NCBI GenBank assembly: GCA_018062425.1
Contig: JAGOSH010000001.1
Span: 16,039-80,038 of the forward strand
Direction: 5' to 3'
DNA length: 64,000 nucleotides
From: Minisyncoccota bacterium
Lineage (GTDB): Bacteria; Patescibacteriota; Minisyncoccia; Phycocordibacterales; UBA9973
The notes under the pieces: model-generated
Seen by the model: the letters and a program-made list of their open reading frames with translations, nothing else
Databases searched by the model: none
What the model was told of the DNA's origin: nothing
Translations under genes and position numbers: made by a program
Shown here: positions 5,033-37,797 of the stretch, one piece after another
Position numbering within the stretch: position 1 is the first letter of the stretch
Layout of the letters: the number at the start of each line of letters is the position of its first letter

Positions 5033-5110
5033 AAGCACGAGCTATGAATTTTTCGAGTGGTGGCGATGCAAAGCAGGATATCCCGAGAAAAATTTGATAG
5101 CTTGTGCTTT
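5032..5110. repeat. 13-bp-stem inverted repeat (AAAGCACGAGCTA / TAGCTTGTGCTTT) holding copy 1 of a 46-bp repeat (5050-5095) in its loop
   Basis: Stem read directly from the sequence. The loop core TTTTCGAGTGGTGGCGATGCAAAGCAGGATATCCCGAGAAAAATTT matches 5421-5466 at 43/46. Confidence 0.7.
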
Positions 5111-5117
5111 CGCTAAA

Positions 5118-5969: not shown

Positions 5970-6005
5970 AAACAAAGTGCTAGTATAATATTTAAATATA
6001 AAAAC

Positions 6006-6809
6006 ATGATTACCTTTCCTAAAAAATGGTTTTTTCTTTCTGCTGTTCTGCTTTTTATAGTAGTACCTGTTTTGTTTGTCTTGGCATTTATTACTGAAGT
6101 AAAAACTCTACCAGAAAGCAACATAGGACAAACTGAGGTTACTTTAAATGGTAGAATCACTGCAAGTGGAAACATCCCAGTACTTGGTCATTTTCGATAT
6201 ACTAAAACCGCTACTGCTAGTTGCATTAATATGCAAAACGAAACTAACACTCCCGACCAAACACTTGTTAATAACTCAGGAACTTATTTGTTTAGTCACA
6301 ATCTAACGGGCCTACAATCGGGAACCACTTATTATTACTGTGCCATCGGCACACAAGGCGGCGTAAGCCAATTCGGAAACGTTGAGAGTTTCATAACCAA
6401 CACAAACGGTGGGGGTAATAATGGGGGTCCGAGCTTTGGAGGGGGTTTCGGCTCTGGATCAAGTAATAGCTCTGTTACAACTACAAGTTTACAAAAACAA
6501 TTCTCTGGAATTATCATAAAATTAAAAGCAAAAGAAATCGAGGCTTTGGAAAACGCTAACTATGCGTGTGCTGTACCGGGCACATCAATCGAAATTAGGC
6601 CCAAAGGAATGAAAGGTTTCCAGCAAACAAGTTACATAATACCTGCTGCGACCATCTCGAAAACAAAACACGCTCCTTCCGTAAACCAACAAATAGTAGG
6701 TAAATACAGTGGAAAAACCTCGGTAACCTGTATTTTCCAAGGCGAACCCCCACTCGAAGAAACCGTTACTTTAAACACAATAAAGATGTATGGTAATTCT
6801 GCTCAGTAA
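6006..6809 (+). CDS. hypothetical membrane-anchored or secreted protein with a TxYYYCA motif domain
   Basis: N-terminal hydrophobic segment. The motif GTTYYYCAIG is shared with three or four repeats in the 10579-14076 protein. A Gly/Ser/Asn low-complexity linker follows. Confidence 0.5.
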   Translation: MITFPKKWFFLSAVLLFIVVPVLFVLAFITEVKTLPESNIGQTEVTLNGRITASGNIPVLGHFRYTKTATASCINMQNETNTPDQTLVNNSGTYLFSHNLTGLQSGTTYYYCAIGTQGGVSQFGNVESFITNTNGGGNNGGPSFGGGFGSGSSNSSVTTTSLQKQFSGIIIKLKAKEIEALENANYACAVPGTSIEIRPKGMKGFQQTSYIIPAATISKTKHAPSVNQQIVGKYSGKTSVTCIFQGEPPLEETVTLNTIKMYGNSAQ

Positions 6810-7753
6810 TGAAAAAATTTAAATTCAAAATTAAAATAAACCCTGCCTATAAAAAATACTTGCCGAGCAAGAGTTTTACTATATTTGTCGGAGGCGGTAT
6901 TACCCTGGTAATAATCGTTTCCGTTATTTTTGGTTTAGCTAAAGGTAAAGAAAACTTCTCCGCCCTCAAAACACAAGATTTGAAAACAGATGGTTCGACT
7001 TTGTCGGATTTGCTTCAAACCGACACCGACCTCGATGGAGTTTTGGACTGGGAAGAAGCCCTTTGGGGGACAGACAAAACCCTGAAAGCAACATTCAACG
7101 CAACCCCAGACGCGATTTATGTAAAACAAAAGAAAGACGCTTTAGCCACAGAAGACGATAGTGAAGGCTTAAATGAGACAGACAAGTTCGCGCGGTCATT
7201 TTTTGCTTCATATTTGGCACTCGAATCTGCTGGTGAAGACCCAGAGACGATAAAAAATCTAGGTCGTGCAGTAGGAGAGAAAATCGGTGACCCAAACTTG
7301 GTAGACGTTTTCGCCGAAGGGGATGCGAAGGTGGTGGTGGGTACTGATATCTCGGATGTAAAAAAATACTATACCGCAATCCAGGAAGTTTTCGACAAGT
7401 ACAGGGAAACAGGCATGGGTGACGAAATTGATATTGTAAACTCTGGACTCGTCAGTGCTCAAGATAAACTAGACTCAGTCAACAGGAACAAATTAGAACG
7501 CACGAGTAAAACCTACAAAGATTTCGCGGATGAAATGATGAAGATTAGCGTACCCCGAGAATACATAAGCGCCCACGTAAAAATGGCAAATAGTGCTTAT
7601 AATACAGGTGTTTCGGTCTTATCGATGACAAAAATAGTTGACGATCCGATTGTTGGGTTAGGCGGTATAACTCAATATCAAAAGTACAGCGAGGATTTTG
7701 TAAAAGCCGCAGGGGATTTAGACGAGGAATTAGCCCAGGTATTGGAAGAATAA
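6809..7753 (+). CDS. hypothetical membrane-anchored protein
   Basis: Its start overlaps the previous stop (TAATG). One N-terminal TM helix, a DTDLDGVLDWEE acidic motif, no catalytic motif. Confidence 0.5.
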   Translation: MKKFKFKIKINPAYKKYLPSKSFTIFVGGGITLVIIVSVIFGLAKGKENFSALKTQDLKTDGSTLSDLLQTDTDLDGVLDWEEALWGTDKTLKATFNATPDAIYVKQKKDALATEDDSEGLNETDKFARSFFASYLALESAGEDPETIKNLGRAVGEKIGDPNLVDVFAEGDAKVVVGTDISDVKKYYTAIQEVFDKYRETGMGDEIDIVNSGLVSAQDKLDSVNRNKLERTSKTYKDFADEMMKISVPREYISAHVKMANSAYNTGVSVLSMTKIVDDPIVGLGGITQYQKYSEDFVKAAGDLDEELAQVLEE

Positions 7754-7782
7754 GTTTTTTTTAAGTTATAATACTAAAATAG

Positions 7783-10566
7783 ATGCAAAGCCATATATTT
7801 AAAAATACAGTCACCGCGTTTCTGGTTATGCTTTTTGTGTTTTCGCCTGTTTTGGAAGTAAAAAAAGCAGCCGCTCAAACGGGGGGAGGTTATCCTACCA
7901 CTGGTTCTTATAGTTATGGTTCTGGTGGAACCTCTGGTGGACTAAGTGGCTATATAAAAGGACTCGGCCCAGCAATAACACAACTCCCTAAATGTAAGAA
8001 AAAGATTAAGGGTGCAATCAAAAGTCTGTTTGGTAAAAGCAAGGGCATACTCGCCAAAGAAGCATCTGGCACGTTGGGCACATCCTTGGGTGGAACTATT
8101 TCTCAATCAGCAGCCCAACAAAACACTATTCAAAACTACGACAAAGAAGCTAATGACAAGTTGAAAAAACAAGATACGAAATTGAGTCGTATAGACGAAG
8201 CTACTGGTTCTCTGGACGAAAATTCTTCTTGTCTCGACTCTATTGGTAAATTAATAATAGACAGAATGATCCAGAGAATCACCCTAGCTACAGTTGAGTG
8301 GATCAAAACCGGAAACAGTGGCGGTCCAGCTTTCGTCCAAGACCCTGGCAGGTTCTTGCGAGACATTGCCAAAGAAGAAATCCTTACTTTTGGACTAGAG
8401 CTTAACCTGGGCGCAGACTGTCAGGCTGTATTTTCTGGTAATGTTTTAGGTACAACAGGTAGCACCAACATAGACTCAACAGACGATTGTTTAAACCCTT
8501 ATGGTAAGTCTTGGTTCAAATATCAAGCTGAAGCTTTTAATAAAAAATTCAACGACAATGCACGTTATTCACTAAACGAACTCATCGCTGAAACAACCCC
8601 CCAATACACCGGGGCTTCATTCCATGCTAATTTCTCCTCTGGAGGATGGAACGCTTGGACAGCGCTTACATCTGTACCCGCAAACAACCCTGTCGGTTTC
8701 GGTCTTTTGGCGGAAACTGAATTATCGAAAAGGTTAGCTGGTGTTCAAAAATCAACAGCCGAACAAGTTCAAGACGCTCTCAAAGAATCAAATGGCTTCT
8801 TGGGGGACTATCGTTGTGCAGACCCAGAAGGAACCACCAAGGACCAGCACAAAGCAGCACTCGAATCTGGAGACACAGACCTGGCTTGTAAGAGATGGGA
8901 ATACGTAACCCCGGGTAGAGCTGTAGCTGAAGAAGCTCTAAAGATAAGTCATTTCCAAGAAAATAAACTAATTCGAGCAGACACCCTAAACGACGCAATG
9001 GCGGCAATAGTAGATGCTCTTATACAAAGATTCTCAAATGAGTTGTACGAGAAGGGATTAGCTGGTTTCTCGGATGAAGGTTCTGATGGTGGGTTGATAC
9101 TGAACGCTTACGCCATCGATGGTAGTTATGGTATCAACCAAGTTGAACAAGACTTCCCGGAATACTTGCAAGGTTCAGAATGGTTTAACGCACATTCTGG
9201 TTTCAATATAAGAACTGATTTAACTCAAGCAATCATAGACGAACAAAGGGTTTTTGCCGAGAAACTGCAAACTCAAAACGAGGTGCTGGAACGAGTAATT
9301 CAGTGGACTCAGGTACTTGATTATTGTATTCCGGGACCGAGTCCAAAAAAATACAGGGAGTTGAATGAGATAGATTTGTTCTCGGATACAGAAGAAGTCA
9401 CGCTGAAATTCGACTTGGCAGAGCTAGTGCTGTCGTTTGACCCAACTGGAATATTCTCCGGTATCGGCCAAGCTATTTTTGAAAAACAACACGAAAAAGA
9501 GGTCAAGAAGATAATTGCTACTCGTCTGGGCCTCATGTTCGATATACACATATATGGTGCTTTCGGATACACCGAACATGAAGACCAGCTAAATATCCAA
9601 CAAGACCAAATCTTGAACAAAGACGATATGGAAGGTTTGGGTAAAAACATCATTGCCTCCTACAAGGAAGTTATCCATAACACATACTTCAACGGTTCAA
9701 AGTCGGCTGCACCTATGCCAATAGTTACCAACGAAGCGCGGAATGAATTTGAAAGAATTGATGCCTACAAAGGAATCATTGAGGAAAACGATGATAGGGT
9801 TGGATTAATGAATGCCGTCGTACAAAGACTTGGTAGAATCAAAGAAACAATCGAAGACCTGGGACCACAGCCAGACCCTACTGATCCAGCTTTTGAGGAT
9901 TACGAAAACTCATTGAAGCCATTCATCGCAGAGTTCGGTCGTCTAACAGGTGAAATGGTGACAGGGGATGATATTGCTAAAGCCCATAAACTGCTACAAG
10001 AAATGGAAGATAAGGAGGTCTATATTCACGATGACCTTCTAACCGGTCCTGGTGGTTGCGAGGAAGAAATGATCAAATTATACGATGATGTTCCAGATGG
10101 TAGAGCTTTGTACAGTAAATTCTACCGAAGGCAGCCATATGGCGAACCTATTCCGTATCTTTACGGTTCCGGAGTAACAGGAAGCAATATCAGTCCTTAT
10201 GACCCAGGACCAAAGGTAGTGCTTAATCCACACGACAGAACTGCTTGGAGTGAACTATCAGTAAAGAACTGGAACCCAAATGATGGTTTCTTGTTTGGTA
10301 GTGTATATTGGAATTTCTGGGCTCGACCATACGATGGAGGTAACGCATATCAAGGAGATAACAAAACACACAACCCTCCTAATTTAGGGAAAATTAGAAA
10401 TAATTCTTGTCCCGAATTTATTGATGTTGTTTATTTCTCATTTCCAAACAGAGCTGACCTTGGTGGTCTAGAACCACAAGGTGCGCTGGGTTATTCAATA
10501 CCATATGGACCTAACAACTGTGGTGTAATAACTCGAAGATTAGAAGAGATGCTTGGTATGTGGTAG
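7783..10566 (+). CDS. large hypothetical secreted protein (927 aa)
   Basis: Signal peptide followed by a Gly/Ser/Thr-rich linker and a large domain of unknown function. Confidence 0.55.
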   Translation: MQSHIFKNTVTAFLVMLFVFSPVLEVKKAAAQTGGGYPTTGSYSYGSGGTSGGLSGYIKGLGPAITQLPKCKKKIKGAIKSLFGKSKGILAKEASGTLGTSLGGTISQSAAQQNTIQNYDKEANDKLKKQDTKLSRIDEATGSLDENSSCLDSIGKLIIDRMIQRITLATVEWIKTGNSGGPAFVQDPGRFLRDIAKEEILTFGLELNLGADCQAVFSGNVLGTTGSTNIDSTDDCLNPYGKSWFKYQAEAFNKKFNDNARYSLNELIAETTPQYTGASFHANFSSGGWNAWTALTSVPANNPVGFGLLAETELSKRLAGVQKSTAEQVQDALKESNGFLGDYRCADPEGTTKDQHKAALESGDTDLACKRWEYVTPGRAVAEEALKISHFQENKLIRADTLNDAMAAIVDALIQRFSNELYEKGLAGFSDEGSDGGLILNAYAIDGSYGINQVEQDFPEYLQGSEWFNAHSGFNIRTDLTQAIIDEQRVFAEKLQTQNEVLERVIQWTQVLDYCIPGPSPKKYRELNEIDLFSDTEEVTLKFDLAELVLSFDPTGIFSGIGQAIFEKQHEKEVKKIIATRLGLMFDIHIYGAFGYTEHEDQLNIQQDQILNKDDMEGLGKNIIASYKEVIHNTYFNGSKSAAPMPIVTNEARNEFERIDAYKGIIEENDDRVGLMNAVVQRLGRIKETIEDLGPQPDPTDPAFEDYENSLKPFIAEFGRLTGEMVTGDDIAKAHKLLQEMEDKEVYIHDDLLTGPGGCEEEMIKLYDDVPDGRALYSKFYRRQPYGEPIPYLYGSGVTGSNISPYDPGPKVVLNPHDRTAWSELSVKNWNPNDGFLFGSVYWNFWARPYDGGNAYQGDNKTHNPPNLGKIRNNSCPEFIDVVYFSFPNRADLGGLEPQGALGYSIPYGPNNCGVITRRLEEMLGMW

Positions 10567-10578
10567 AAAAACAAAAAT

Positions 10579-13500
10579 ATGAAAATTTTTAAAAAAGTAA
10601 AAATAGTTGTTTCCCTAATAATTGCCTTATCTGTTGTGCCGTCTGTTGCTCATGGTGCACTAGTTCTCAAAACCTTACAAGCTATCAACGTAACACAGAG
10701 CACAGCAACACTCCTTGCACGCGTTAGCGACCTGTCTTCCCCCGAGGGAACCATAGTAGACCTGTATGGTAAATTCCGGTATTCCACCAACGCAAACAAC
10801 GCAAACAAGACCTGTGAAACAATGCAAAGTGCTACCGAGGTGGCCGCTGATCCACCACCACTCACAGGACTCGATTTTTTTACTAATAGTGCTTACAACT
10901 TCCAAAAGAAAGACCTTGGTCCTCTGCAACAAAATACACAGTATTATTATTGTGCTGTGGTTTCCAGTACCGACGATTTCTCGAGCGGTGTTTTGTATGG
11001 AAACATGGTGACTTTTACACCAGAACCACCTCCAGACTTGATAGGTAGTGTTATAACAGTAGGCTCGAGTAACGTGGGGGAAAGTACTGCAACTGTTTCT
11101 GGACAAATCATAGAAGACAATCCTAACACTCCGGTGTTTGGTCGCTTTCGTTACTCAGAAAATTTCGGTCCTAGTTGTGGATCATTGCCCAACGCGCAAA
11201 CGAGCCTCAAGAGGAAAAAAACAGGGACCGGTAATTTTACCTTTAATGTTACCTTAACAGGACTCAAGGATGGAACAAAGTATTACTATTGTGCTGTGGG
11301 AGCGGACAATTCTGACTTTTTTGATGCGGTTTATGGAAATGTAAAAGATTTTACCACTCCGTTTAGTAGTAGCACTAACAGAATCGGCCCGGTTAAAACA
11401 CTGACTGCTACACAAATAGATGACACTGAGGTTACCCTTCGTGGCAATTACACTGCTGGTGGACCAGGATTTGCGTACTTTAGAGTGTCCACGGCAGACA
11501 TACCACCGGTATTCTGTAACGACATTTACGGTTCTGACATGATTGGTGTCACCTCAAACATACCAGACCCAATAGGGTATACTACTGGCGGAGATTTTGG
11601 TGTCCACGTAAACGGACTAGACCCAGAAACTGATTACTACTACTGTGCAGTAGTATCCAACGGTGCGTACGATCCAACAAAACCTAGATCTTTAAATGAA
11701 GCTCAGATTAAATACGGAGAAGTGAAAAAATTTAGAACTCTGCCTTGTGACAGCTGCAACAATACAACCATTACTACAAAAGGATCGGATGTAATAGATA
11801 GTACTAGCGCTAATCTGACAGGGACTTTCAAGTCTTCGCGTGCAGTGAATGTTTTTTTTGAGTATTCAAAGTTTGGAATTATTGATCCAACAAACCCACA
11901 ACCACCAACAGCGCTCTGGCAAGCAACTCCAGAGAAAAAATACGGTGCCAATTCTAGCGCTAACTACAACCAGCTGATAAAAGATTTAGAGAAGAACACA
12001 ACATACAGCTTTAGAGCTGTCGCTAAGGTGACCAACCCTGATACTTCAATAGAAATATTCTACGGTCAAACACTACAATTCACCACCAACAAATACAACG
12101 GGGTTACTGGTGAAGACATTGATGATGGAAACGGAATTGATGACCCTCCTATTATAGACCCTGGAGTGGGTGTAGGTCCTGGAGTAATAATAACCACAGG
12201 AGACGACAACTGCCCAGCGGGAACAACTGGTACGTTCCCTGCATGTACGCCGATCATAAACCCATTAGGTTGTTCAATTGGGTGGCTTGGAACCCCTCCA
12301 AACTGTTTCAACCCTGGACCTGGAGGAACCGGTACTGACCCAACAACCAAAACTCCCAAAGTTACCGTAACAGCTAACCCTGTATTTATTGACATTGGTG
12401 AGTCTTCGACTATCTCGTGGACATCATCCGCTGTTTCTACTTGTACTTTAAATGGTTACGAAGTTCCAACAAGTGGCTCTGCTGACACAGGAGGGTTGAA
12501 CAATACCACTTCTTATACAGTTGCATGTTCTGGAATCAATGGATCAGCTGCGGATACTGCAAGTGTTTTTGTAAATATCGACAATGGTAACGGTGGAGGA
12601 GATTTGATTTGGGTTGATGTAACAGCTTCACCTGTTTTCTTTCCACTAAATGCTTCAGTTACCATATCTTGGACATCAGGAGGAGCACAGTTTTGTGATA
12701 GTGGAGGACATGGAGAGGGAACCAGTGGATCGTTTGTTATACCATTAGTCAAAGCTAGTTCTTCTCACACAGTAACTTGCAGTGGTCAGGCTGGCACCGC
12801 CAGCGATACTGCATACATTGTATTGTACGACACCGGCATACCACCTCTACCTACAAACATGTGTGTTCCTACCACAGAAACCAGAAACTTGAACTGCTCT
12901 GCTGGTTATACTGGTTCTGTAAGTCAAACGAGAACATCTTCTTGTCCTACCTTATACGGAAATCCTGTTTGGGCCCCTTGGACAACAACCACTAACACCT
13001 GTACAGACCCGAATGGCAACACAGCCCCACCACCTCCACCACCTCCTCCTGGAGCGTGTTTCTCAAGCAACCAAACTAGACTATTGGCCTGTCCAGCTGG
13101 TTACACTGGTTCAATAAACCAAGCACGTACCTCTTCTTGTCCTACTGCAAACGGAAATCCTGTTTGGACTGACTGGGTAACCACTTCTGAAAATTGTAAA
13201 GACGCGAATGGTAATGGTTTACCTCCAACACCACCAGGCGGCACGCCACCTGGTCCAGGGAATCCTGGAGTTCCACCTAATCCAGCAAACCCTGGAGTTC
13301 CACCTCCACCAGGCGGACCAGGTCAGAACGGCAACCCACCACTAACACAAGACAATGACAATGATGATGATGGTGTAGGTAATCCGCACGACGATGACAC
13401 TGATGGTGATTGGGATCCAAACGATACTGACACCGATGACGATGGAGACGGTATTCCTGACTTTGTTGATGGTTCACCAAATGGTCCAGGCACCGGAGAC

Positions 13501-14076
13501 GACTTTGATGGGGGAGGGCTTCCAAACTCTTTGGATACAGACATGGATGGCGACGGAATTCCAAACTACTTAGACGGTGACACTGATGGAGACGGAGTAC
13601 CTAACGATATTGACCTAGACGATGATGGAGATGGAATTCCTGACTTGCTCGACCCAACGCCTCGAGGCACACATGGTGACCGAGGAAGTGATTTGTTGGT
13701 TCTGGGTCAAGAAGCTACCCCACCAAACGACGCAATAGTACGCTATCATGAAGGTATTGAGACTGTTTTCGCAAGGCAGATTCGCCGAAACACAGCTTTC
13801 GCCGAGAGGTATGGATATACTGGGGGAGACATGGTCAACTTTGCTTGGAACCTGGCGCACACATTTGCTAAATTCTATTTCGGATACATCAACGAATCAA
13901 ACCTGGAAGTTCGAGTTTCCGCACCAGATGTTTCTGCGTACGAATTACGACAAGTGTCCAACACACTGGTTGTGTATGAGTATTACAAAAATGTGATAGT
14001 TGATATCAGGAGTAAGACAGTGGAGTTTAAAAACAAGAATCCGTACGAATATTATTTCCGCAGAATTTTCCGATAA
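10579..14076 (+). CDS. giant surface/adhesin-like protein with YYYCA-motif repeats, Cys-rich tandem modules, polyproline and thrombospondin-type-3-like Ca-binding repeats
   Basis: Signal peptide. The motifs TQYYYCAVV, TKYYYCAVG and TDYYYCAVV. Two tandem ~55-aa Cys-rich modules (C..TR.L.C.AGYTGS..Q.RTSSCPT..GNPVW..W). PPPPPPPPG. Repeated DxDxDGxxD units (DTDGDGIPDFVDG, DTDMDGDGIPNYLDGDTDGDGVPNDIDLDDDGDGIPDLLD). Confidence 0.65.
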   Translation: MKIFKKVKIVVSLIIALSVVPSVAHGALVLKTLQAINVTQSTATLLARVSDLSSPEGTIVDLYGKFRYSTNANNANKTCETMQSATEVAADPPPLTGLDFFTNSAYNFQKKDLGPLQQNTQYYYCAVVSSTDDFSSGVLYGNMVTFTPEPPPDLIGSVITVGSSNVGESTATVSGQIIEDNPNTPVFGRFRYSENFGPSCGSLPNAQTSLKRKKTGTGNFTFNVTLTGLKDGTKYYYCAVGADNSDFFDAVYGNVKDFTTPFSSSTNRIGPVKTLTATQIDDTEVTLRGNYTAGGPGFAYFRVSTADIPPVFCNDIYGSDMIGVTSNIPDPIGYTTGGDFGVHVNGLDPETDYYYCAVVSNGAYDPTKPRSLNEAQIKYGEVKKFRTLPCDSCNNTTITTKGSDVIDSTSANLTGTFKSSRAVNVFFEYSKFGIIDPTNPQPPTALWQATPEKKYGANSSANYNQLIKDLEKNTTYSFRAVAKVTNPDTSIEIFYGQTLQFTTNKYNGVTGEDIDDGNGIDDPPIIDPGVGVGPGVIITTGDDNCPAGTTGTFPACTPIINPLGCSIGWLGTPPNCFNPGPGGTGTDPTTKTPKVTVTANPVFIDIGESSTISWTSSAVSTCTLNGYEVPTSGSADTGGLNNTTSYTVACSGINGSAADTASVFVNIDNGNGGGDLIWVDVTASPVFFPLNASVTISWTSGGAQFCDSGGHGEGTSGSFVIPLVKASSSHTVTCSGQAGTASDTAYIVLYDTGIPPLPTNMCVPTTETRNLNCSAGYTGSVSQTRTSSCPTLYGNPVWAPWTTTTNTCTDPNGNTAPPPPPPPPGACFSSNQTRLLACPAGYTGSINQARTSSCPTANGNPVWTDWVTTSENCKDANGNGLPPTPPGGTPPGPGNPGVPPNPANPGVPPPPGGPGQNGNPPLTQDNDNDDDGVGNPHDDDTDGDWDPNDTDTDDDGDGIPDFVDGSPNGPGTGDDFDGGGLPNSLDTDMDGDGIPNYLDGDTDGDGVPNDIDLDDDGDGIPDLLDPTPRGTHGDRGSDLLVLGQEATPPNDAIVRYHEGIETVFARQIRRNTAFAERYGYTGGDMVNFAWNLAHTFAKFYFGYINESNLEVRVSAPDVSAYELRQVSNTLVVYEYYKNVIVDIRSKTVEFKNKNPYEYYFRRIFR

Positions 14077-14139
14077 AAGTTTCCGTAAAATATAGTTTTT
14101 GTTTCCTTGGTTTGCTACAATGATTAAGTATTTGCATTA

Positions 14140-16461: not shown

Positions 16462-16470
16462 AACAAAAAC

Positions 16471-16950
16471 ATGACTGATAAATTAAAAGAAACAATTGAA
16501 GAAGAAGTAGTTAAAATGCCTAGAGAATTCCAGGAAGCTTTTACAGCGTCAAACTGGATACCTGTCTCCGAAGACATTGCGCGCAAATACAAACTGTATT
16601 TGGATGAAGAGATAAATAAATTCCAAGCAGAAGTTTTTTTGGTTCTATCTGGTGTTGTTCAATTCGAACTACTTTCTGTGAACATAGAAAACGAACTTGG
16701 TTTGAGCAAAGAAGAAGCAGAAAAAATAGAAGGGGAAGTACTTGAAAGAGTAATTTTTCCTTTTTCCAGTAACCTGGAATCCAAGGCAGAGTGGAAAATG
16801 GATATTAAGAATTCAAAATGGGATCAAAATCTTGATTTTATAACGTCAGGAGGGGACTACTCAGCTTTTCTGGATATTAAAAAAAGTTCCCCAGATCTAA
16901 CAACAACGGAAACAAAATCAGAAACAAACCAGAGCAATCCAAGTGTTTAA
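16471..16950 (+). CDS. hypothetical protein
   Basis: Intact ORF in the operon; no recognisable motif. Confidence 0.5.
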   Translation: MTDKLKETIEEEVVKMPREFQEAFTASNWIPVSEDIARKYKLYLDEEINKFQAEVFLVLSGVVQFELLSVNIENELGLSKEEAEKIEGEVLERVIFPFSSNLESKAEWKMDIKNSKWDQNLDFITSGGDYSAFLDIKKSSPDLTTTETKSETNQSNPSV

Positions 16951-16966
16951 GTGTTAAAATAATCTT

Positions 16967-17593
16967 ATGGATAATACAATCGATTTACTAAAAATGAAGA
17001 TAGAGCGAGCCCGAGAAGTACTACCACCGGAAACCTTGGTAGCGATTGATGCTGTGCCTTGGCGAGAAGTCATATATAACATGCGTGAAAGGAAAGGGTT
17101 CAACTTGACTCAACTAGAAGATCTGGAACTTGAGACTGAGTTGGTGCTTTGTGGTCTTGTTCCACCAGAGAAATATCCAAACGAACTAGCCACCAGGATG
17201 GGACTCAGCCTACCTCAGGTCACAGTATTGGTTGAAGAAATGAACGATTTGGTGTTCAAGAAAATCCGCGAGGAGTTAGTAAAAAAAATTAGTAGTAACA
17301 AGGCTTTGGGCTTGGATACCAAAACCCCAATACCTAGTAATAATTTTGTAAACACAGAAGACGCCAACCAAAGGACTGTGGATATCAAAGTAATAAAGCA
17401 AGCCATCGCTCGAAAAGAAGAGGATGAGAACAATTTGATCAACTCTATCTTGGGTCAGAAGCTCTCTGGTGCTCATATTTCTCCTCAAACCAAAACAGAG
17501 TACTCTTTGGGTAATATATCACGAGCAGAAGAACCAAAAACAACCGCAAAAAGTAGTTCTGTGGATCCTTATCGGATGAATCCAGGGGAATAA
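16967..17593 (+). CDS. hypothetical protein
   Basis: Intact ORF in the operon; no TM segment and no recognisable motif. Confidence 0.5.
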   Translation: MDNTIDLLKMKIERAREVLPPETLVAIDAVPWREVIYNMRERKGFNLTQLEDLELETELVLCGLVPPEKYPNELATRMGLSLPQVTVLVEEMNDLVFKKIREELVKKISSNKALGLDTKTPIPSNNFVNTEDANQRTVDIKVIKQAIARKEEDENNLINSILGQKLSGAHISPQTKTEYSLGNISRAEEPKTTAKSSSVDPYRMNPGE

Positions 17594-17651
17594 AACTCTT
17601 TTTTATTTAAAATATTGTATACTAATATAAGTCGCAAGACTGAATCTAATA

Positions 17652-18092
17652 ATGCAATTCAAGGTTCCACAATTCTTGGATATTGAGGATAAACTTTTTG
17701 GGCCTTTTACTTTCAGCGAGTTCGTATACTTGGCTGGAGGAGCAGGACTTTGTTATGTGGTATACAAAGCCCTGGGTCTTTTGCTTGGCTTGATACCCAT
17801 AGCGGCCATCGCCGGACTCGCGGTAGCTTTAGTGTTTTACAAACCCAACGACAAGCCCTTGGTCAACATGATCGAAGCTGGCATCAAATACGCAGCTCAA
17901 AGCAAACTGTACATCTGGAAGCGAAGAGTTGTGAAATCTACTACCAAAACTCCTGCTCCTAGCCACAGAAACCCACAAACCATAAACGTAAGCCCGGAAC
18001 ATACCATCAAATTAACTGGTAGCAAACTTCGAGATTTAGCTTGGAGTTTAGATATTTTAGACACAAAAAAAGAAGGCACCAATGGCAATTAA
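17652..18092 (+). CDS. small two-TM membrane protein, VirB3-like
   Basis: 146 aa with two adjacent hydrophobic helices, sitting immediately upstream of the VirB4 ORFs as in PrgI/VirB3 arrangements. Assigned from position and topology. Confidence 0.4.
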   Translation: MQFKVPQFLDIEDKLFGPFTFSEFVYLAGGAGLCYVVYKALGLLLGLIPIAAIAGLAVALVFYKPNDKPLVNMIEAGIKYAAQSKLYIWKRRVVKSTTKTPAPSHRNPQTINVSPEHTIKLTGSKLRDLAWSLDILDTKKEGTNGN

Positions 18093-18732
18093 CGCACGCA
18101 CAACTCAAGAGTTCATACCAATCAAAGAAGTCCGTGATGGTGTTGTTGTTTTAAAAGACGGCGGTCTTCGAGCTATCATTCTAGCGAACTCTATTAACCT
18201 TTCTTTGAAATCTGAAGATGAACAGAAGGCTACAATCATGCAGTTTCAATCACTTTTAAATACTTTGGATTTCCCGATCCAGATATCTGTCCAATCTCGT
18301 CGGCTAGACATACGTCCATATTTGCTTTTGCTTGAAAACAGAATGAAGGTTCAAACCGAACCCTTGCTCAAGCTCCAAACCAAAGAATATATGGAGTTTA
18401 TCAAGAACTTTACTGATACCGTCAGCATCATGACCAAAAACTTCTTCATTGTTGTACCTTTCACTCAAACAGCATTACCAACTAGCGGGGGTGGTGATTT
18501 CTTTAGTTTCTTTTCCAAAAAAACAAAGAGCGAACTAACGAAAGTAGCCGAGATGGATTTCGAAGAAAAGCGTTCTCAACTCGAACAGAGGGTGGGGGTA
18601 GTGGAGCAAGGGTTAGCGAGTTGTGGAATCAAATCAATCCAGTTAGGCAGTGAAGAAGTAGTGGAAGCCTTTTACAAAGTTTTTAACCCTGGTGAATCTC
18701 AAGGTAAAATTGACCTTGGAGAAATCAAATAA
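18082..18732 (+). CDS. VirB4/TrbE N-terminal domain, separate ORF (split gene or frameshift)
   Basis: FIPIKEVRDGVVVLKDGGLRAIILANSINLSLKSEDEQKATIMQFQSLLNTLDFPIQI matches the conserved N-terminus of Gram-positive conjugative VirB4 ATPases. It ends 2 nt before the ATPase ORF, which is in a different frame. Confidence 0.55.
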   Translation: MAINARTTQEFIPIKEVRDGVVVLKDGGLRAIILANSINLSLKSEDEQKATIMQFQSLLNTLDFPIQISVQSRRLDIRPYLLLLENRMKVQTEPLLKLQTKEYMEFIKNFTDTVSIMTKNFFIVVPFTQTALPTSGGGDFFSFFSKKTKSELTKVAEMDFEEKRSQLEQRVGVVEQGLASCGIKSIQLGSEEVVEAFYKVFNPGESQGKIDLGEIK

Positions 18733-18734
18733 CA

Positions 18735-20573
18735 ATGGGAATTTTTGATACAATTTTGGGTAAAAAGAAAGAAGAGATTAGTACAACTAATGCTTCTATT
18801 ATGCCGATCTTGCCGGAGGAAATCTATGAATCCGCGACCCTCGAATTACAAGACGTCATAGCACCCTCAGCGCTTAAAATCGAACCGAAATCCATAAACC
18901 TAGGGGAGAAGATCGCTCGTACATTTTTCATCATATCTTATCCTAGGTTTCTATCAGACAACTGGTTCTCGCCGATAGTGAATTTGGACAAAGTATTCGA
19001 TGTCGCTATTTTCGTCCACCCGATCGACACCTCACTAGCGCTACGTCAATTCCAAAAGAAAGTAGCCGAAGTGCAGAGCCAGATAAATGTCCGCGAATCC
19101 CGTGGAGTGGTGCGCGACCCCATGCTCGATACTGCGTACCAAGACCTAGAGTCTCTACGTGACAACCTAATTCAAGCTCAAGAAAAGCTGTTTGATGTTG
19201 GAATCTATATCACTATCTACGCAGACAACGAACTTGAACTCTATAAAATCGAAAATGAAATCAAGTCTATATTGGAATCAAAGTTGGTATATATAAAACC
19301 AGCACTTTTCCAACAAGAAGATGGATTTAAAAGTGTTATTCCGATAGGCACAGACTTTTTGAATATCAACCAGAAATTAAATTCAGAACCGCTTTCAAGT
19401 GTTTTCCCATTCGTTTCTTTCGACTTAACATCTGACAGAGGTATCCTCTACGGTATCAACCGCCACAACTCGTCTTTGGTGATCTTTGATCGTTTCTCTC
19501 TCGAGAACTATAACTCGGTTACTTTTGCCAAGTCAGGTAGTGGTAAAAGTTACGCCACCAAGCTCGAGATATTGCGGTCACTTATGTTCGACGTTGATGT
19601 TATCGTCATAGACCCGGAAAGGGAATATGAATTCTTGTCAGAAGCAGTCGGTGGTAGGTATTTCAACATCTCACTTTCATCCGACCACCACATCAACCCT
19701 TTTGATTTACCAATACCCAGAGAAGACGAAACTCCAGAAGATGTGCTACGTTCAAACATCATCAACCTGGTTGGCTTGTTTCGGTTAATGCTCGGAGGAT
19801 TAACCCCAGAAGAAGACGCTTTGGTTGACCGGGCAATCTCTGAGACTTATGCCATCAAAGATATAACCCCTAACTCCGACTTTGCCAATATTGAACCACC
19901 ACTACTATCAGACTTTGAAATGGTGCTCTCTGGTATGGAAGGGTCCGAATCCGTCGTACAACGTCTGGTTAAATACACTCGTGGATCTTGGTCTACTTTC
20001 ATTAATAGGCCTTCGAACGTTGATATCAACAAGAAGTTTGTAGTCTTTTCGGTGCGAGATATGGAAGACGAATTAAAACCGATCGCCATGTACATCGTAA
20101 CCCACTATATCTGGAATACTATTAGAAAAAACCTAAAGAAACGCTTGTTGGTGGTGGATGAGGCTTGGTGGATGATGAAATCAGAAGATACTGCTTCGTT
20201 TTTGTATTCGTTGGCCAAAAGAGGACGTAAATACTACTTGGGTTTGGCTACTATTACCCAGGACGCCGCAGACTTCATGAAGTCTCCATACGGAGTACCT
20301 ATTATCACCAACTCTTCAATTCAAATACTGCTGAAACAGTCTCCGAGTACTATTGAAATCCTCCAAAAGACATTTAACCTAACTGACGAAGAAAAATACT
20401 TGCTCTTGGAGTCTGGTGTAGGTGAAGGGATATTCTTTGCTGGCTTAAAACACGTTGCCATCAAGATAGTGGCATCTTATACCGAAGACCAAATCATCAC
20501 TTCAGATCCTTCACAAATATTATCAATCAAAAAATCGAAGGATGACCTCGAATCCCTCTCTGGTAAGTCTTAA
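18735..20573 (+). CDS. virB4: VirB4/TrbE/CagE-family type IV secretion ATPase (ATPase domain)
   Basis: Walker A FAKSGSGKSYATK, Walker B LLVVDEAWWMM (the DEAW signature), and ITQD near the C-terminus. Lengths 216+612 sum to about the typical VirB4 length. Confidence 0.8.
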   Translation: MGIFDTILGKKKEEISTTNASIMPILPEEIYESATLELQDVIAPSALKIEPKSINLGEKIARTFFIISYPRFLSDNWFSPIVNLDKVFDVAIFVHPIDTSLALRQFQKKVAEVQSQINVRESRGVVRDPMLDTAYQDLESLRDNLIQAQEKLFDVGIYITIYADNELELYKIENEIKSILESKLVYIKPALFQQEDGFKSVIPIGTDFLNINQKLNSEPLSSVFPFVSFDLTSDRGILYGINRHNSSLVIFDRFSLENYNSVTFAKSGSGKSYATKLEILRSLMFDVDVIVIDPEREYEFLSEAVGGRYFNISLSSDHHINPFDLPIPREDETPEDVLRSNIINLVGLFRLMLGGLTPEEDALVDRAISETYAIKDITPNSDFANIEPPLLSDFEMVLSGMEGSESVVQRLVKYTRGSWSTFINRPSNVDINKKFVVFSVRDMEDELKPIAMYIVTHYIWNTIRKNLKKRLLVVDEAWWMMKSEDTASFLYSLAKRGRKYYLGLATITQDAADFMKSPYGVPIITNSSIQILLKQSPSTIEILQKTFNLTDEEKYLLLESGVGEGIFFAGLKHVAIKIVASYTEDQIITSDPSQILSIKKSKDDLESLSGKS

Positions 20574-20596
20574 AAGATGATATAATAATTGAGAGT

Positions 20597-21601
20597 ATGT
20601 TAAAGTCACATTTTTTCTTAAAAACAATTCTTGCGATCGTTTTCTTAGCTTTGGTTTTCTTTCTGCCTTTTTCTACCACCCGAGCCCAAGTACAAGAAAC
20701 TGATGTTTCGATCGGAGTGAATCCAACCTACCCAAAACCAGGGGAGAGTGTGGTTGTGACTTTAAACAGTTTTACCGTCAAACTAGACAAAGCTTTTATT
20801 ATTTGGTCGGTGAACGGTGTTGAACGCGCCAATGGCGTCGGCAAGAAAAGTTTTTCTTTTAATCTCGATCCTTTCAGTTCAAAAACACAGGTTTCTGCTT
20901 CTGTATCAAACGTGGCTGGTGATACTATCACTAAAAATATTTTCATAAACTCAGTAGATGTGGATGTACTTTGGGAAGCGGTAGATTCGTATGTTCCACC
21001 TTTTTATCGCGGTAAAGCACTCGGTGTCCGTGAAGGTAATTTCAAAATTGTGGTTATTCCAAATATTATTTCCTCTCGTGGAAAACTAAGCCCAGGTAAC
21101 CTTTCTTATAACTGGAAAAAGGACGGGGCTGTTCAGGTTTCAGTCTCTGGTTTTGGTAAAGATTCTTTTGTTTACAAAAATAGTTACCTGGACGAAAGCA
21201 ACGAAATACAAGTCGAGATATCTGACGTTGAAAGCAAAACCAAAACTGGTAGCAAGATCACCATACCAACCCTATCTAAACCGGAAATATTTTTCTATCG
21301 CAGAGACCCAAAGCTCGGACTAGCCCTTGAAAAAACAATTGTAGACGGATACTCTCTAGGAGAAACTCCTGAAACTATCGTTGCAGTACCATACTTTTTC
21401 TCACCCAAAAACCTAAATTCTCAAATACTTAGTTTTAATTGGTCATCTGGAGGAGAGGGTATAAAACCAAACCGAAACAGAAACGAGGTCACAGTAGTTG
21501 CACCAAAAGGTAGCAGTGGTGGCACAGAGCTAAAAGTGGTGATTGAAAACAAAGGTAGTTTATTCCAAACTTTAGAGAAAAAATTAAATGTTACTTTTTA
21601 A
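20597..21601 (+). CDS. hypothetical secreted beta-rich protein
   Basis: Signal peptide followed by repeated Ig-like beta segments. Confidence 0.5.
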   Translation: MLKSHFFLKTILAIVFLALVFFLPFSTTRAQVQETDVSIGVNPTYPKPGESVVVTLNSFTVKLDKAFIIWSVNGVERANGVGKKSFSFNLDPFSSKTQVSASVSNVAGDTITKNIFINSVDVDVLWEAVDSYVPPFYRGKALGVREGNFKIVVIPNIISSRGKLSPGNLSYNWKKDGAVQVSVSGFGKDSFVYKNSYLDESNEIQVEISDVESKTKTGSKITIPTLSKPEIFFYRRDPKLGLALEKTIVDGYSLGETPETIVAVPYFFSPKNLNSQILSFNWSSGGEGIKPNRNRNEVTVVAPKGSSGGTELKVVIENKGSLFQTLEKKLNVTF

Positions 21602-22583
21602 AACAAAAAAAATAATCAGCTTGGCTTTGTTGGTTTTCATGCTTTTTGCTTTTTCTTTCTCTTTGGTTGGAGCTCAGGATCCTGATCCAACCACTCTCAC
21701 AGACACACAAAACCAAGGAGGTGACACTACGAGTACTTACAAACTGCTTGAGCCATTGGGTACACCAAACGGCAACCTGACCGAATTCACCACTGGTGAC
21801 CCGTGTCCGTTTGTGCGTTATTTGAACATTGTTATAGAAATATTCCTTGGGATATGTGCAGTGCTCGCGATGATTATGATCATCGGTGGGGGATTTGAAT
21901 ATGTAACTAGCGAGCTTCCATCTGCTAAAGGTAACGGTAAAGCAAGAATAACCAACGCAGTTTTTGGTTTCATTATCGCCCTAGCTGGTTATGTGCTTTT
22001 GAACACAGTGAACCCCAAACTCCTAGACCTTTGTCCGAAAATACCCCAAGCAGTTTTAACTGTAGGCCCAGATGCTGGTGACGGTACTGTGGATTCAAAT
22101 TGTGCCGCGGGAAATGCTACGTATGACACGAGTGTTCCTATGACAGCAGCTCTTGGTCCTGCAATTGAAAAACTACAAAATGGGTGGACAATTTCTAAAA
22201 TAAACGTCTATTCAAATGGAAGCGTACAAATTGATTTAATGAAGGATGGACAACTTGATAATAGTACCTTTATTGGAATGTCACCTGGATTAAACGGTTT
22301 TGCTCCTCTTGGAACAGCAGTATCTGGAGACAAGAAAACACCTCTTGGAGACTTCTTTATAAACGGTATTAACTATACTCCAGGTAAAGCTCAGTGTAGC
22401 CAAACAGGATCTAATATGGGAGCCGCTTTTTGGAACCTAGGTCCAATGACTAGGGGTATTGGTATTCACGGTAACGCAACTGGTACACTGTCTAATACAA
22501 ATGGATGTGTTCGTCTTACAAATGCAGACATTTTAGCATTACAACCTTATATACATAACGGTATCCCGGTAATAATTCAATAA
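21588..22583 (+). CDS. VirB2/TrbC-like two-helix membrane protein fused to a C-terminal L,D-transpeptidase (YkuD) domain
   Basis: Signal peptide, then two hydrophobic helices separated by a short loop (IVIEIFLGICAVLAMIMIIGGG ... AVFGFIIALAGYVLL). The C-terminal IHGNATGTLSNTNGCVRLTNADILAL matches the YkuD catalytic His/Cys motif. Confidence 0.6.
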   Translation: MLLFKTKKIISLALLVFMLFAFSFSLVGAQDPDPTTLTDTQNQGGDTTSTYKLLEPLGTPNGNLTEFTTGDPCPFVRYLNIVIEIFLGICAVLAMIMIIGGGFEYVTSELPSAKGNGKARITNAVFGFIIALAGYVLLNTVNPKLLDLCPKIPQAVLTVGPDAGDGTVDSNCAAGNATYDTSVPMTAALGPAIEKLQNGWTISKINVYSNGSVQIDLMKDGQLDNSTFIGMSPGLNGFAPLGTAVSGDKKTPLGDFFINGINYTPGKAQCSQTGSNMGAAFWNLGPMTRGIGIHGNATGTLSNTNGCVRLTNADILALQPYIHNGIPVIIQ

Positions 22584-22588
22584 AATTT

Positions 22589-23941
22589 ATGTCCAAAAGA
22601 AATATTATACTTTTATTTATACTTCTCGTGATTCTAGCTCTTGTGGCTATGGTATCTAGAGCTCCGAAGCTTGAAGTGGAAACTGATTCTGGGAATTCTG
22701 GAAACAATTTTTTCAGTAACTTTTTTAGGTTTCCAGGACAAGGGAACAAAAATCCCTCCACTGGTGGAGGCAAAACAACTGGCACAGACACAGCTGACAA
22801 TGAATACGTAGTAGAGGAAATGCTTTCTTTACGTAAAGTTTCTTCTATGCCGGTAGCTGGTTTCGGAGTATTCGACAAAGAAATCTACACTTACGTAACA
22901 GCACCAGAAAAACCAGCCGATGTGCCTGAATCAGAAGACAAAACAACACCAAATACCAAAACACCGAAAACTGTGCCTGTAGCCCCAGAGACAGAGTTTC
23001 AGACCACTGTACGCTATGTGGACAAGGGTACTGGCAACATCTACCAAAGCGAAGCAGGCAAGGTTGATGAAAGAAAATTCTCAGAAATAATAATGCCTGG
23101 AATTGCTGAAGCATTCTTTGGTAAAAAAGGATCTGCTGTAATACTGCGATACCTACAACCAAACACTGAAATCATTGAGACTTTTATTCGAGAATTTCCA
23201 GAAGAAGTATTGGGTGCCGATGTGAGTTCAGAAGGAGAGGTGACTGGAAACTTTTTACCGCAAAACATTGTTGATGTTTCTGTCTCCGGAGATGGGGAAA
23301 GTGTCTTTTATATATCCAATATCAAATCAGTTGCCTATGGTGTGGTGACCAATACCTCTGGTGCTAACAAAACCCAAGTATTTACATCACCCTATACCGA
23401 ATGGTTGGCCCAGTGGCCTAACAAAAGTCTTATAACAGTAACCACTAAACCTGCTTCAGGTATACCTGGTTTCGTGTATGGCATTAATCCAAACATGAAA
23501 GATTTTAATAAAATTATGGGTGGGGTGAATGGTTTAACCACCTTGACGAGTCCTAACGGTAAATTAGTTTTATTTGGCGACGATCGATTAAATCTATCTA
23601 TCCTAAACCGTGAAACAGGGGAGTCTAAAAACACAAATCTGAGGACCTTGCCAGAGAAATGTGTTTGGGGTTACGACAATGAAGTGGTTTTCTGTGGTGT
23701 TCCTCAATTCACTCCTTTTGGTAACTATCCAGACTCGTGGTACAAAGGACAAACCTCTTTTGCCGATAGCATCTGGCAAATATCTGTAAATGATATTGGT
23801 AACAACCAAGTAATATCGAACCCTATAACCGAAGTGAGCGAGAGTTTGGATGTTATTCGTCCAACTTTGAGTACCGACGGAAAATACTTATTTTTCATAA
23901 ACAAAAAAAGCCCCTATCTATGGGAGCTTCGATTGAAGTAA
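22589..23941 (+). CDS. hypothetical membrane-anchored protein, possibly beta-propeller-like
   Basis: N-terminal TM helix, a Gly/Thr linker and a beta-rich C-terminal region. Confidence 0.45.
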   Translation: MSKRNIILLFILLVILALVAMVSRAPKLEVETDSGNSGNNFFSNFFRFPGQGNKNPSTGGGKTTGTDTADNEYVVEEMLSLRKVSSMPVAGFGVFDKEIYTYVTAPEKPADVPESEDKTTPNTKTPKTVPVAPETEFQTTVRYVDKGTGNIYQSEAGKVDERKFSEIIMPGIAEAFFGKKGSAVILRYLQPNTEIIETFIREFPEEVLGADVSSEGEVTGNFLPQNIVDVSVSGDGESVFYISNIKSVAYGVVTNTSGANKTQVFTSPYTEWLAQWPNKSLITVTTKPASGIPGFVYGINPNMKDFNKIMGGVNGLTTLTSPNGKLVLFGDDRLNLSILNRETGESKNTNLRTLPEKCVWGYDNEVVFCGVPQFTPFGNYPDSWYKGQTSFADSIWQISVNDIGNNQVISNPITEVSESLDVIRPTLSTDGKYLFFINKKSPYLWELRLK

Positions 23942-33508: not shown

Positions 33509-33515
33509 GTTTTTA

Positions 33516-37759: not shown

Positions 37760-37797
37760 TTTGCTTATATTATATAGCAACTTTTCAAAATGGTATA

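Follow-up and report, generated by a model that had tools for sequence, protein, structure and literature searches.

What does a type IV secretion system (T4SS) cluster do when neither a relaxase nor a coupling protein lies beside it? This question is raised by a block of genes in a 64,000-nt stretch of a Minisyncoccota bacterium genome (contig JAGOSH010000001.1, positions 16,039-80,038; hereafter the window, in whose coordinates all positions are given). At positions 6006-23941, the open reading frame (ORF) list of the window showed 13 consecutive ORFs, all on the plus strand, which we number g01 to g13. An earlier reading made from the letters of the DNA (the sequence-only reading) had described a cluster of 12 genes, which is the count when the two VirB4 pieces are taken as one. 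Its observation was confirmed as a whole, and its interpretation was partly supported: the core reading stood and four points were corrected. Our data suggest that the cluster is probably a chromosomal T4SS of the Patescibacteria clade, ordinary for the group, in a Candidatus Nomurabacteria/Paceibacteria genome. The Patescibacteria lineage and the origin-proximal housekeeping context together explain the cluster, and the sequence-only reading had recognised neither.

The VirB4 ATPase is encoded by g10 (18735-20573; 612 amino acids (aa)) and is of the monoderm CD1110/MPF-FATA-like type (MPF, mating-pair formation). We observed that the VirB4 assignment passed profile search: g10 scored 369.9 bits against NCBIfam conju_CD1110 (cut-off 325; model positions 183-733 of 752) and matched the VirB4 C-terminal domain of Thermoanaerobacter (PDB 4AG5; 8e-40), Pfam P-loop_TraG (1.2e-23) and TrwK of R388 (3.5e-7). 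Walker A (KSGSGKS) and Walker B (LLVVDEAW) motifs were read off the translation. Directly upstream, g09 (18082-18732; 216 aa) encodes a TrsD-family protein that corresponds to a separately encoded N-terminal part of VirB4. In NCBIfam, g09 matched VirB4_plasma (the Mbov_0397 VirB4; positions 101-281, 3e-10), TrsD (positions 13-141, 4.6e-6), the CD1110 VirB4 (positions 1-104) and VirB4_CagE (positions 3-172). Thus g09 covers the N-terminal part and g10 the remainder of the same full-length VirB4 models, in order. The score of g09 against the TrsD/TraD model was 26.6 bits with a cut-off of 200, which makes it a distant relative below NCBI's membership threshold. TrsD is the most abundant T4SS protein reported for Patescibacteria (PMC12102498).

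Genomes were scanned with VirB4. Of the more than 550 relatives recovered, the best 80 loci, one per species (L001-L080), were used for comparison. All came from metagenome-assembled genomes (MAGs) of Patescibacteria (Nomurabacteria, Paceibacterota, Parcubacteria), with VirB4 identities of 76-90%. The sequence-only reading had treated g09 and g10 as VirB4 halves. At their junction, a TAA stop is followed by CA and then by ATG, and none of the 80 loci joined the TrsD-like and VirB4 ORFs; all three relative frames occurred, and the spacers measured 1 to about 500 nt. Because the two ORFs are separate in every locus while frame and spacing vary, the split is ancestral and does not reflect a sequencing error; the pair is a conserved TrsD plus VirB4 arrangement and not a broken gene. 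A frameshifted VirB4 was ruled out on the same grounds. Immediately 5' of TrsD lies g08 (17652-18092), a small membrane protein of the PrgI/VirB3 family with a hydrophobic hairpin at residues 27-61. Its Pfam PrgI score (PF12666; 28.5 bits, cut-off 27) bears out the earlier call of a VirB3-like protein, and g08 was found in 74 of the 80 loci, always in this position.

The candidate channel subunit is g05 (14140-16461), which we describe as an extended VirB6-like polytopic membrane protein. The sequence-only reading had called it VirB6/TrbL-like. We found no Pfam, NCBIfam or PDB sequence match for g05, and no TrbL/VirB6 Pfam match in g05, in 47 of its orthologues or in the precomputed Pfam annotation of 120 homologues. 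The protein has a signal/anchor. In its AlphaFold2 model (121 sequences, mean pLDDT 79), an N-terminal immunoglobulin (Ig)-like beta-sandwich ectodomain precedes a bundle of long membrane helices, which lie between residues 183 and 437, and the C-terminal part is a cytoplasmic helical coiled-coil domain. Foldseek searches of the PDB with this model returned TrwI/VirB6 of R388 (probability 0.99, TM-score 0.44-0.48), the sole membrane protein among the matches listed. Two structure comparisons agree that R388 TrwI is the best natural structural match of the membrane core. In addition, g05 lies upstream of PrgI and VirB4, the position held by prgH in pCF10. We accepted g05 as VirB6-like on its predicted fold and position, with homology short of proof; the VirB6 part of the earlier call stood on these grounds, and the TrbL/VirB6 family match did not materialise. 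Alignment by hhalign of profiles with single pCF10 PrgH, PrgL and PrgJ sequences was uninformative (probabilities 0.2-3.5%).

A T4SS of this kind has been published for Patescibacteria between 2023 and 2025, including the cluster type, the MPF-FATA ancestry, TrsD, the absent relaxase and the origin-proximal site (PMC10633639, PMC12102498). The same gene set, with no relaxase and in proximity to dnaA, ksgA and rnpA, occurs in more than 2,400 Patescibacteria genomes (PMC12102498). The closest references are the survey by Quinonero-Coronel et al. 2025 (PMC12102498) and the Southlakia epibionticum cluster SEML1_0006-0019 of Wang et al. 2023 (PMC10633639). Common to the Patescibacteria-clade systems and to our cluster are a monoderm-type VirB4 with an adjacent TrsD-like protein, PrgI/VirB3, a large protein (in our cluster VirB6-like by predicted structure), a PF18895 pilin domain, wall enzymes 3' of virB4, and a chromosomal site near dnaA, ksgA and rnpA (in class Paceibacteria), with no relaxase or coupling protein in the window. 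The earlier proposal of a T4SS-like operon built around VirB4, VirB3, VirB6-like and VirB2-like parts thus matches the published Patescibacteria T4SS (PMC12102498, PMC10633639). In contrast to most of its relatives, the cluster in the window adds the Fn3-rich proteins g01 and g04.

Comparison with conjugative systems showed both shared and divergent parts. The pCF10 system (Prg/Pcf, MPF-FATA) has the same local order of PrgH (VirB6-like), PrgI, PrgJ (VirB4), PrgK (a membrane-anchored wall enzyme) and PrgL (a bitopic protein), and the RefSeq name of PrgJ is also that of a CD1110-type VirB4, the model passed by g10. The position of g12 matches PrgK. The enzyme at this position has a YkuD fold here, and an NlpC/P60, SLT, amidase, VanY or M15 domain in the orthologues of relatives, on a pilin-like hairpin anchor. 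However, pCF10 differs in having the coupling protein PcfC, the relaxase PcfG, VirB8-like PrgL and PrgD, LPXTG adhesins, an unsplit VirB4 and no pilin domain; we found no PcfC, relaxase or PrgL-like protein in the window. The staphylococcal pGO1/pSK41 T4SS (TrsD and TrsE) also has a separate TrsD by virB4, in keeping with the match of g09 to the TrsD/TraD model; no other MPF-FATA subclass encodes TrsD, a remote homologue of the VirB4 N-terminus, as a protein of its own (PMC12102498). Unlike our cluster, pGO1 is a conjugative plasmid: it encodes a relaxase and a coupling protein and lacks a VirB6 homologue (PMC12102498). The diderm R388/VirB T4SS has VirB4, a VirB3-like protein and a pilin domain of VirB2/TrbC type in common with our cluster, as well as the VirB6 fold of TrwI that is predicted for g05. 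The outer-membrane core of VirB/D4-type systems (VirB7, VirB9, VirB10) and VirB11 gave no Pfam or NCBIfam match in any cluster ORF.

The sequence-only reading had suggested that the unnamed components are lineage-specific replacements for VirB7-10. This was the wrong frame because VirB4 is of the monoderm type, and an outer-membrane core of VirB7/9/10 is altogether absent from monoderm T4SSs (PMC12102498). The unnamed proteins make better sense as components of the wall passage or of the surface: Ig-like repeats, a TolB-like propeller and Fn3 adhesins.

Among the ORFs of the window, which are otherwise housekeeping, we observed no VirD4/TcpA-type coupling protein, relaxase, VirB11 or integrase, as the sequence-only reading had noted for VirD4, relaxase and VirB11. 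Domain searches of these ORFs gave no relaxase match; no search for oriT was made. These results bear on the possibility that the cluster is a conjugation machine, with its mating-pair-formation genes here and the coupling protein, relaxase and oriT elsewhere in the genome or carried by a mobilisable element. Monoderm conjugative systems are the ancestors of this VirB4 type, and g10 passes the NCBIfam cut-off for the CD1110 conjugal ATPase; the window covers only 64 kb of the genome, and type IV coupling protein (T4CP) genes are often far from virB4, with VirD4-like matches in most Patescibacteria genomes (PMC12102498). However, the window holds no relaxase, T4CP, integrase or element boundary, and the housekeeping synteny is fixed over dozens of species, unlike that of integrative and conjugative elements. 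A survey of 3,035 Patescibacteria genomes counted 109 relaxases, 15 of them near virB4, and the distal t4cp homologue of S. epibionticum is non-essential whereas its T4SS genes are essential (PMC12102498). We consider conjugation very improbable. The non-conjugative reading given earlier, for a genome in which type IV pilus genes are present as well, agrees with the published conclusion (PMC12102498, PMC10633639).

To assess conservation, every cluster protein was searched by tblastn in the 80 loci; many loci end before the upstream genes, which makes the counts for those genes lower bounds. Matches were found in 80 loci for TrsD and VirB4, 74 for PrgI and g11, 69 for g12, 68 for g13, 63 for the VirB6-like protein, 44 for g03, 39 for g07, 34 for g02, 16 for g06, 12 for g04 (partial) and 5 for g01. 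The six core genes were colinear in 56 of 61 loci, and yidC lay downstream on the opposite strand in 62 of 62. Eleven of the 13 cluster genes recur in the same order in relatives, and the full order in several species is uvrD-ksgA-g02-g03-VirB6-(g06)-g07-PrgI-TrsD-VirB4-g11-g12-g13-jag-yidC-dnaA. In those species g02 begins 48-200 nt past ksgA, and g02 is the gene next to ksgA in many relatives. Because the full order includes neither of them, the Fn3-rich g01 and g04, which share a module, are lineage-specific additions.

Median identities in these VirB4-selected loci were 82.9% for VirB4, 73.0% for DnaA, 66% for TrsD, 54.8% for YidC and 54% for KsgA. Despite the biased comparison with DnaA, this points to strong, indeed striking, constraint on VirB4 and to vertical inheritance. 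The apparatus had been called minimal, a description at odds with the recurrence of 11 of 13 genes and with a VirB4 more conserved than DnaA in the same loci. An integrated conjugative element or island was rejected, given the fixed housekeeping synteny, the lack of an integrase or relaxase in the window and a GC content of the cluster similar to that of the upstream flank.

The housekeeping boundary upstream is ksgA/rsmA, encoding the 16S rRNA dimethyltransferase (5094-5969, plus strand; Pfam RrnaAD, 4.2e-57); ksgA is also the neighbour in 30 loci, and a UvrD-type helicase gene lies further upstream. Downstream, Pfam identified jag (23951-24436), yidC (24438-25154) and rnpA (25382-25708) on the minus strand, followed by dnaA (26005-27351) and dnaN (27578-28675) on the plus strand. 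Five DnaA-box-like 9-mers with one mismatch each lie at 27365-27603, in and just past the dnaA-dnaN spacer, which makes this segment a plausible oriC; the motif is not enriched window-wide and forms a local cluster only.

Gaps between neighbouring cluster ORFs ranged from -14 to +63 nt. The two overlaps reported earlier, the TAATG at 6807-6811 and the 21588/21601 junction, are real, and a third had been missed (11 nt between 17652-18092 and 18082-18732). The best sigma-70-like site of the region, TTGGAA-17-TATAAT at 5961-5989 on the plus strand (score 10/12), overlaps the ksgA stop and lies 16 nt 5' of g01, and is a candidate operon promoter; promoter-like sites in the region were no more frequent than in shuffled sequences, which makes it weak evidence. 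No plus-strand terminator-like site was found in any intergenic gap of the cluster, in a scan that performed at chance level. With promoter and terminator scans at chance level, gene packing and synteny suggest that the block is probably transcribed as one operon. The opposing view, that no single system exists here and unrelated neighbours happen to share a strand, could draw on the uninformative promoter- and terminator-like sites and on the poor conservation of g01 and g04. Against it stand the same order of 11 of 13 genes in other species, the tight gaps with three overlaps and the lack of a plus-strand terminator-like site within those gaps, and we regard it as extremely improbable.

Downstream of virB4 and g11, g12 (21588-22583) encodes a signal peptide, a VirB2-like pilin hairpin at residues ~47-149 and a C-terminal YkuD L,D-transpeptidase domain. 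Both Pfam cut-offs were passed (T4SS_pilin PF18895, 27.6 vs 26.6; YkuD PF03734, 46.8 vs 23.4), in line with the earlier description of a VirB2-like two-helix protein fused to an L,D-transpeptidase. Compared by eye with the YkuD active-site motif, the stretch GIHGNATGTLSNTNGCVRLTN of g12 shows the His and Cys that such a motif requires. Searches with the pilin-domain profile showed that g12 is the sole pilin-domain ORF in the window and that exactly one such ORF occupies the same position in 67 of 72 related loci. S. epibionticum differs: its six pilins stand alone, in an array on the opposite strand, and its lysozyme-like protein is encoded separately, whereas the single pilin-domain gene here and in those 67 loci is fused to a wall enzyme. 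The pilin-domain ORFs of related loci are mostly 300-600 aa long, with a few as short as 130-200 aa. In this clade, the sole pilin-domain gene near virB4 appears always to be fused.

These proteins typically begin with a signal peptide and a variable N-terminal region. A pilin hairpin of ~100 aa follows, which closes with the conserved ...LNTINPxLL, and the C-terminal module after it is mostly 150-280 aa long. Pfam annotation of 71 g12 orthologues gave T4SS_pilin in 58, NlpC/P60 in 13, VanY in 8, YkuD in 5, Amidase_5 in 4, Peptidase_M15_4 in 3, SLT in 2, SLT_2 in 2, and Amidase_2 and 3D in 1 each; some orthologues also matched TrbC (PF04956). BLAST clustering of the C-termini yielded at least 12 unrelated groups, several of them with no Pfam match. 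Examples of orthologues with swapped modules are L007:12114-13190, L013:12909-14204, L017:12844-14259 and L010:12882-13982. Where two species had VirB4 proteins at least 90% identical, they shared a module in just 15% of pairs; at lower identity, 7-10% of pairs did so. Module type is uncoupled from VirB4 relatedness.

Four loci carry two g12-type copies with related N-termini and unrelated C-terminal modules: L001 (12871-14619 and 16024-17871), L064 (12750-14201 and 14221-15648), L076 (12564-14303 and 15665-17365) and L079 (3560-5044 and 5080-6879). This layout is similar to the cassettes of polymorphic toxin loci. There is scant or no space between the copies for a small immunity-like ORF.

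At a larger scale, the pilin family had 86,259 members at E<=1e-3 among 1.84 billion representatives. Among the best matches of this family search, 59 of 88 single-domain proteins extended C-terminally by 120 aa or more, and tandem pilin domains, 2-17 per protein, were present in 54 proteins. The 80 pilin proteins with extensions showed recurring SLT, M15_4, VanY, NlpC/P60, YkuD and CHAP domains. The large-database search with the pilin profile returned short proteins only, likely a candidate-selection effect, and the fusions were surveyed by an all-against-library search; stand-alone short pilins of the same subfamily do exist in the large database. The pilin-domain profile found nothing usable among PDB sequences. 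We also noted predicted proteins with long pilin-domain arrays: P0251 (1775 aa, 17 stretches), P0247 (1147 aa, 10-11) and P0264 (1382 aa, 11). They may be true polyproteins, merged gene calls or the product of read-through along pilin arrays.

VirB1-type matches are known to associate with virB4 in Paceibacteria (PMC12102498), and the texts of PMC12102498 and PMC10633639 make no mention of the fusion or of module exchange. Wider full-text searches turned up no account of either; with incomplete coverage, calling them undescribed is provisional. The pilin-anchored, exchangeable wall-enzyme module may be the one aspect of the cluster that is new. A more speculative proposal, which we hold to be rather unlikely, is that the Paceibacteria VirB2-like hairpin is no ordinary pilin and serves as the delivery or anchoring module of a polymorphic cell-wall enzyme family. 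It would consist of one fixed locus after virB4, the conserved LNTINPxLL junction and a C-terminal cassette of ~150-280 aa, drawn from NlpC/P60, VanY, YkuD, M15, SLT, amidases and at least five modules without a family. If swapping follows the wall chemistry of the host, as opposed to that of the epibiont, the T4SS would present these proteins as tools, which could decorate or tip a pilus or be processed free, and could open or re-crosslink host peptidoglycan at attachment. The module would then be a determinant of host range and, with exchange mirroring host wall type, a sequence-readable handle on the host specificity of uncultured organisms.

The same gene bears on whether the cluster is a surface-structure or wall-remodelling apparatus, in which VirB4 would power a pilin filament or anchor showing wall enzymes and adhesins, with no channel substrate. 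VirB4 drives pilus biogenesis in diderm systems (PMC12102498) and the pilin array is essential in S. epibionticum (PMC10633639). The cluster is also rich in surface proteins, and its sole pilin-domain gene is fused to a wall enzyme. Polymerisation is in doubt, however, for a pilin with a 180-aa C-terminal domain, and the retention of a VirB6-like channel subunit and of the conserved cytoplasmic proteins g06 and g07 suggests translocation. We regard a surface apparatus of this kind as improbable.

Several other cluster proteins would belong to the wall-spanning part of a translocating machine. The protein encoded by g11 (20597-21601; 334 aa) is membrane-anchored or secreted, is a conserved core component and was found in its 74 loci immediately 3' of virB4. 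Recurring alignment motifs suggest about three Ig-like repeats; Ig-type matches in the PDB were weak (Hoc and decoration proteins, E ~0.07), and some orthologues match Ig_3, PKD_3 and BiPBP_C. The last gene, g13 (22589-23941; 450 aa, a conserved core component), combines an N-terminal anchor with what looks like a TolB-type beta-propeller: its family profile matched TolB 7mx5 at E 0.0038 and ten further TolB chains weakly, with PG_binding_1 in six orthologues and PD40 in four. The probability of an hhalign match between g13 and PrgL was 0.3%, and g13 looks TolB-like rather than VirB8/PrgL-like. Profiles of TrsD and g11 returned nothing usable from PDB sequences.

A hydrophobicity scan identified an N-terminal signal/anchor in 8 of the 13 ORFs and a hairpin in a ninth. 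The four ORFs without a hydrophobic segment were 16471-16950, 16967-17593, 18082-18732 and 18735-20573. The first two of these, g06 and g07, had been counted among seven signal-peptide or membrane-anchored ORFs with no known domains; both are cytoplasmic, and several of the other proteins show recognisable folds (Fn3-like, Ig-like, TolB-like). g06 (159 aa) is acidic with no transmembrane segment, and g07 (208 aa) has a conserved C-terminal motif, ..QKLSG.F..P..KTEHSL.NI...DPYRE.PE. The two appear to share a helical domain of ~100 aa, N-terminal in g07, on the basis of their alignment and of a tandem duplication within one ORF in some orthologues; both match the same ORF in some loci, and pairwise BLASTP of g06 against g07 was not significant. 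Their role could be that of adaptors for the machine or of its substrates.

Taken as a T4SS, the cluster would work as follows. A VirB4 hexamer, with TrsD supplying its N-terminal domain in trans, would dock on PrgI and the VirB6-like protein to form a membrane translocon; we infer these roles because those of VirB3, VirB4 and VirB6 are established in T4SSs. The pilin hairpin, with VirB2 topology and both ends outside, would place the enzyme domain in the wall compartment, where the pilin-anchored enzyme would remodel peptidoglycan at the wall crossing, matching PrgK/VirB1 in both position and function. The anchored propeller, which is peptidoglycan-binding in some relatives, and the Ig-repeat protein would scaffold passage through the wall, and the Fn3-rich proteins may mediate contact as adhesins. 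The likeliest function would be that of a non-conjugative, contact-dependent conduit from the ultrasmall cell to its host, exporting proteins or exchanging other molecules and carrying no plasmid DNA. This proposal is made by analogy with the homologous S. epibionticum T4SS cluster, which is essential for epibiotic growth on the host and has no nearby relaxase or coupling protein (PMC10633639). A T4SS as a conduit for exchange with the host has also been suggested elsewhere (PMC12857230).

If traffic ran in the other direction, the cluster would import host DNA to feed the cell, much as the archaeal Ced and Helicobacter ComB systems take up DNA. Patescibacteria are not known to make nucleotides, and T4SS-related importers exist. 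In class ABY1 the T4SS adjoins comF, recG and radA (PMC12102498), and the VirB4 of our cluster weakly matches the CedB model. However, this match reached 33.5 bits with a cut-off of 700, over ~70 residues (444-514), which suggests a shared ATPase core only, and the cluster contains no DNA-binding or nuclease genes. Competence in S. epibionticum runs via type IV pili and ComEC; deletion of comEC ended transformation but not viability, while the T4SS was still essential (PMC12857230). DNA import is, in our judgement, quite improbable.

Several points weigh against the conclusion that the cluster is an ordinary Patescibacteria T4SS acting as a host conduit. We found no VirB8-like protein: the profiles of g02, g11 and g13 had no VirB8, PrgL or TcpC match among PDB sequences, and monoderm T4SSs normally include such a protein; one of the three may nevertheless carry a cryptic NTF2 domain, the fold of VirB8-like proteins. 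The VirB6 identity comes from predicted structure only, and the wall enzyme here has an L,D-transpeptidase fold and is no hydrolase, which leaves a simple VirB1-like wall-opening role unestablished. The single-operon view is founded on packing and on the lack of plus-strand terminator-like sites in the gaps, from scans without enrichment. Selecting loci by VirB4 similarity inflates VirB4 conservation relative to the other genes. The function is drawn wholly by analogy, and no substrate, effector or secretion signal was identified. Since the search covered the 64-kb window, a distal coupling protein or relaxase is possible, and most Patescibacteria genomes have VirD4-like matches far from virB4 (PMC12102498).

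The cluster is a further instance of a T4SS already on record from more than 2,400 genomes of Patescibacteria. The role of this T4SS is an open question of 'microbial dark matter' biology: it is essential on the host in the one organism tested, with no substrate known. For Paceibacteria, the largest class, our analysis adds a gene-by-gene map of the conserved core, structural support for the missing VirB6, wall-spanning candidates (the TolB-like propeller and the Ig-repeat protein), the conserved cytoplasmic pair g06/g07 and a sole pilin-like gene that carries rapidly exchanged peptidoglycan enzymes.

The remaining cluster genes encode surface proteins at the 5' end. The variable accessory protein of g01 (6006-6809; 267 aa) has a hydrophobic N-terminal signal/anchor and one Fn3-like module (Pfam Pur_ac_phosph_N, 6.5e-5, below cut-off), and is 35% identical to the modules of g04. 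g02 (6809-7753; 314 aa) encodes a bitopic membrane protein with a single transmembrane-like segment (residues 25-43) and an Asp-rich motif of the thrombospondin type 3 (TSP3), calcium-binding type; profile search found no relative among PDB sequences, and Pfam TSP3_bac was present in 7 of 30 orthologues. The conserved secreted protein of g03 (7783-10566; 927 aa) has a C-terminal half predicted confidently as helical and is identical to a protein of a 'Candidatus Pacebacteria' MAG. The earlier call of a giant Ca-binding surface protein concerned g04 (10579-14076; 1165 aa), an accessory protein that is variable and adhesin-like. It contains three or more Fn3-like modules (Pfam Pur_ac_phosph_N, 43.8 bits, cut-off 30) and Pro/Cys-rich repeats. 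The Ca-binding repeats of the earlier call were Asp-rich DxDxDG-type repeats spotted by eye in the translation, with no Pfam match. Such DxDxDG-type (TSP3-like) motifs occur in both g02 and g04, with TSP3_bac matches confined to some g02 orthologues.

Other large ORFs of the window are housekeeping genes (PBP1, TyrRS, RuvB, RuvC, PolA, UvrABC, RNR and ABC-F). The PilB ATPase noted earlier at 36062 was confirmed (T2SSE and MshEN; 36062-38065, minus strand); it is the sole T2SSE-family ATPase in the window and lies 12 kb from the cluster. The accompanying PilM call at 63903 covers 32 residues only and could not be verified. The 5' ends of pilB and polA (37798-40215, plus strand) overlap by 268 nt, and the true pilB start is probably a later ATG. 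Two ORFs 5' of the helicase gene have no credible family match: 82-2118 (plus strand), a 678-aa charged low-complexity protein, and 2214-2771 (minus strand), a 185-aa secreted protein. A YebC/TACO1-family ORF at 33516-34055 (minus strand; 179 aa) is a partial match to the second and third domain of the model. A yebC frameshift across 33017-34055 was rejected, as the neighbouring ORF at 33017-33538 is ruvC.

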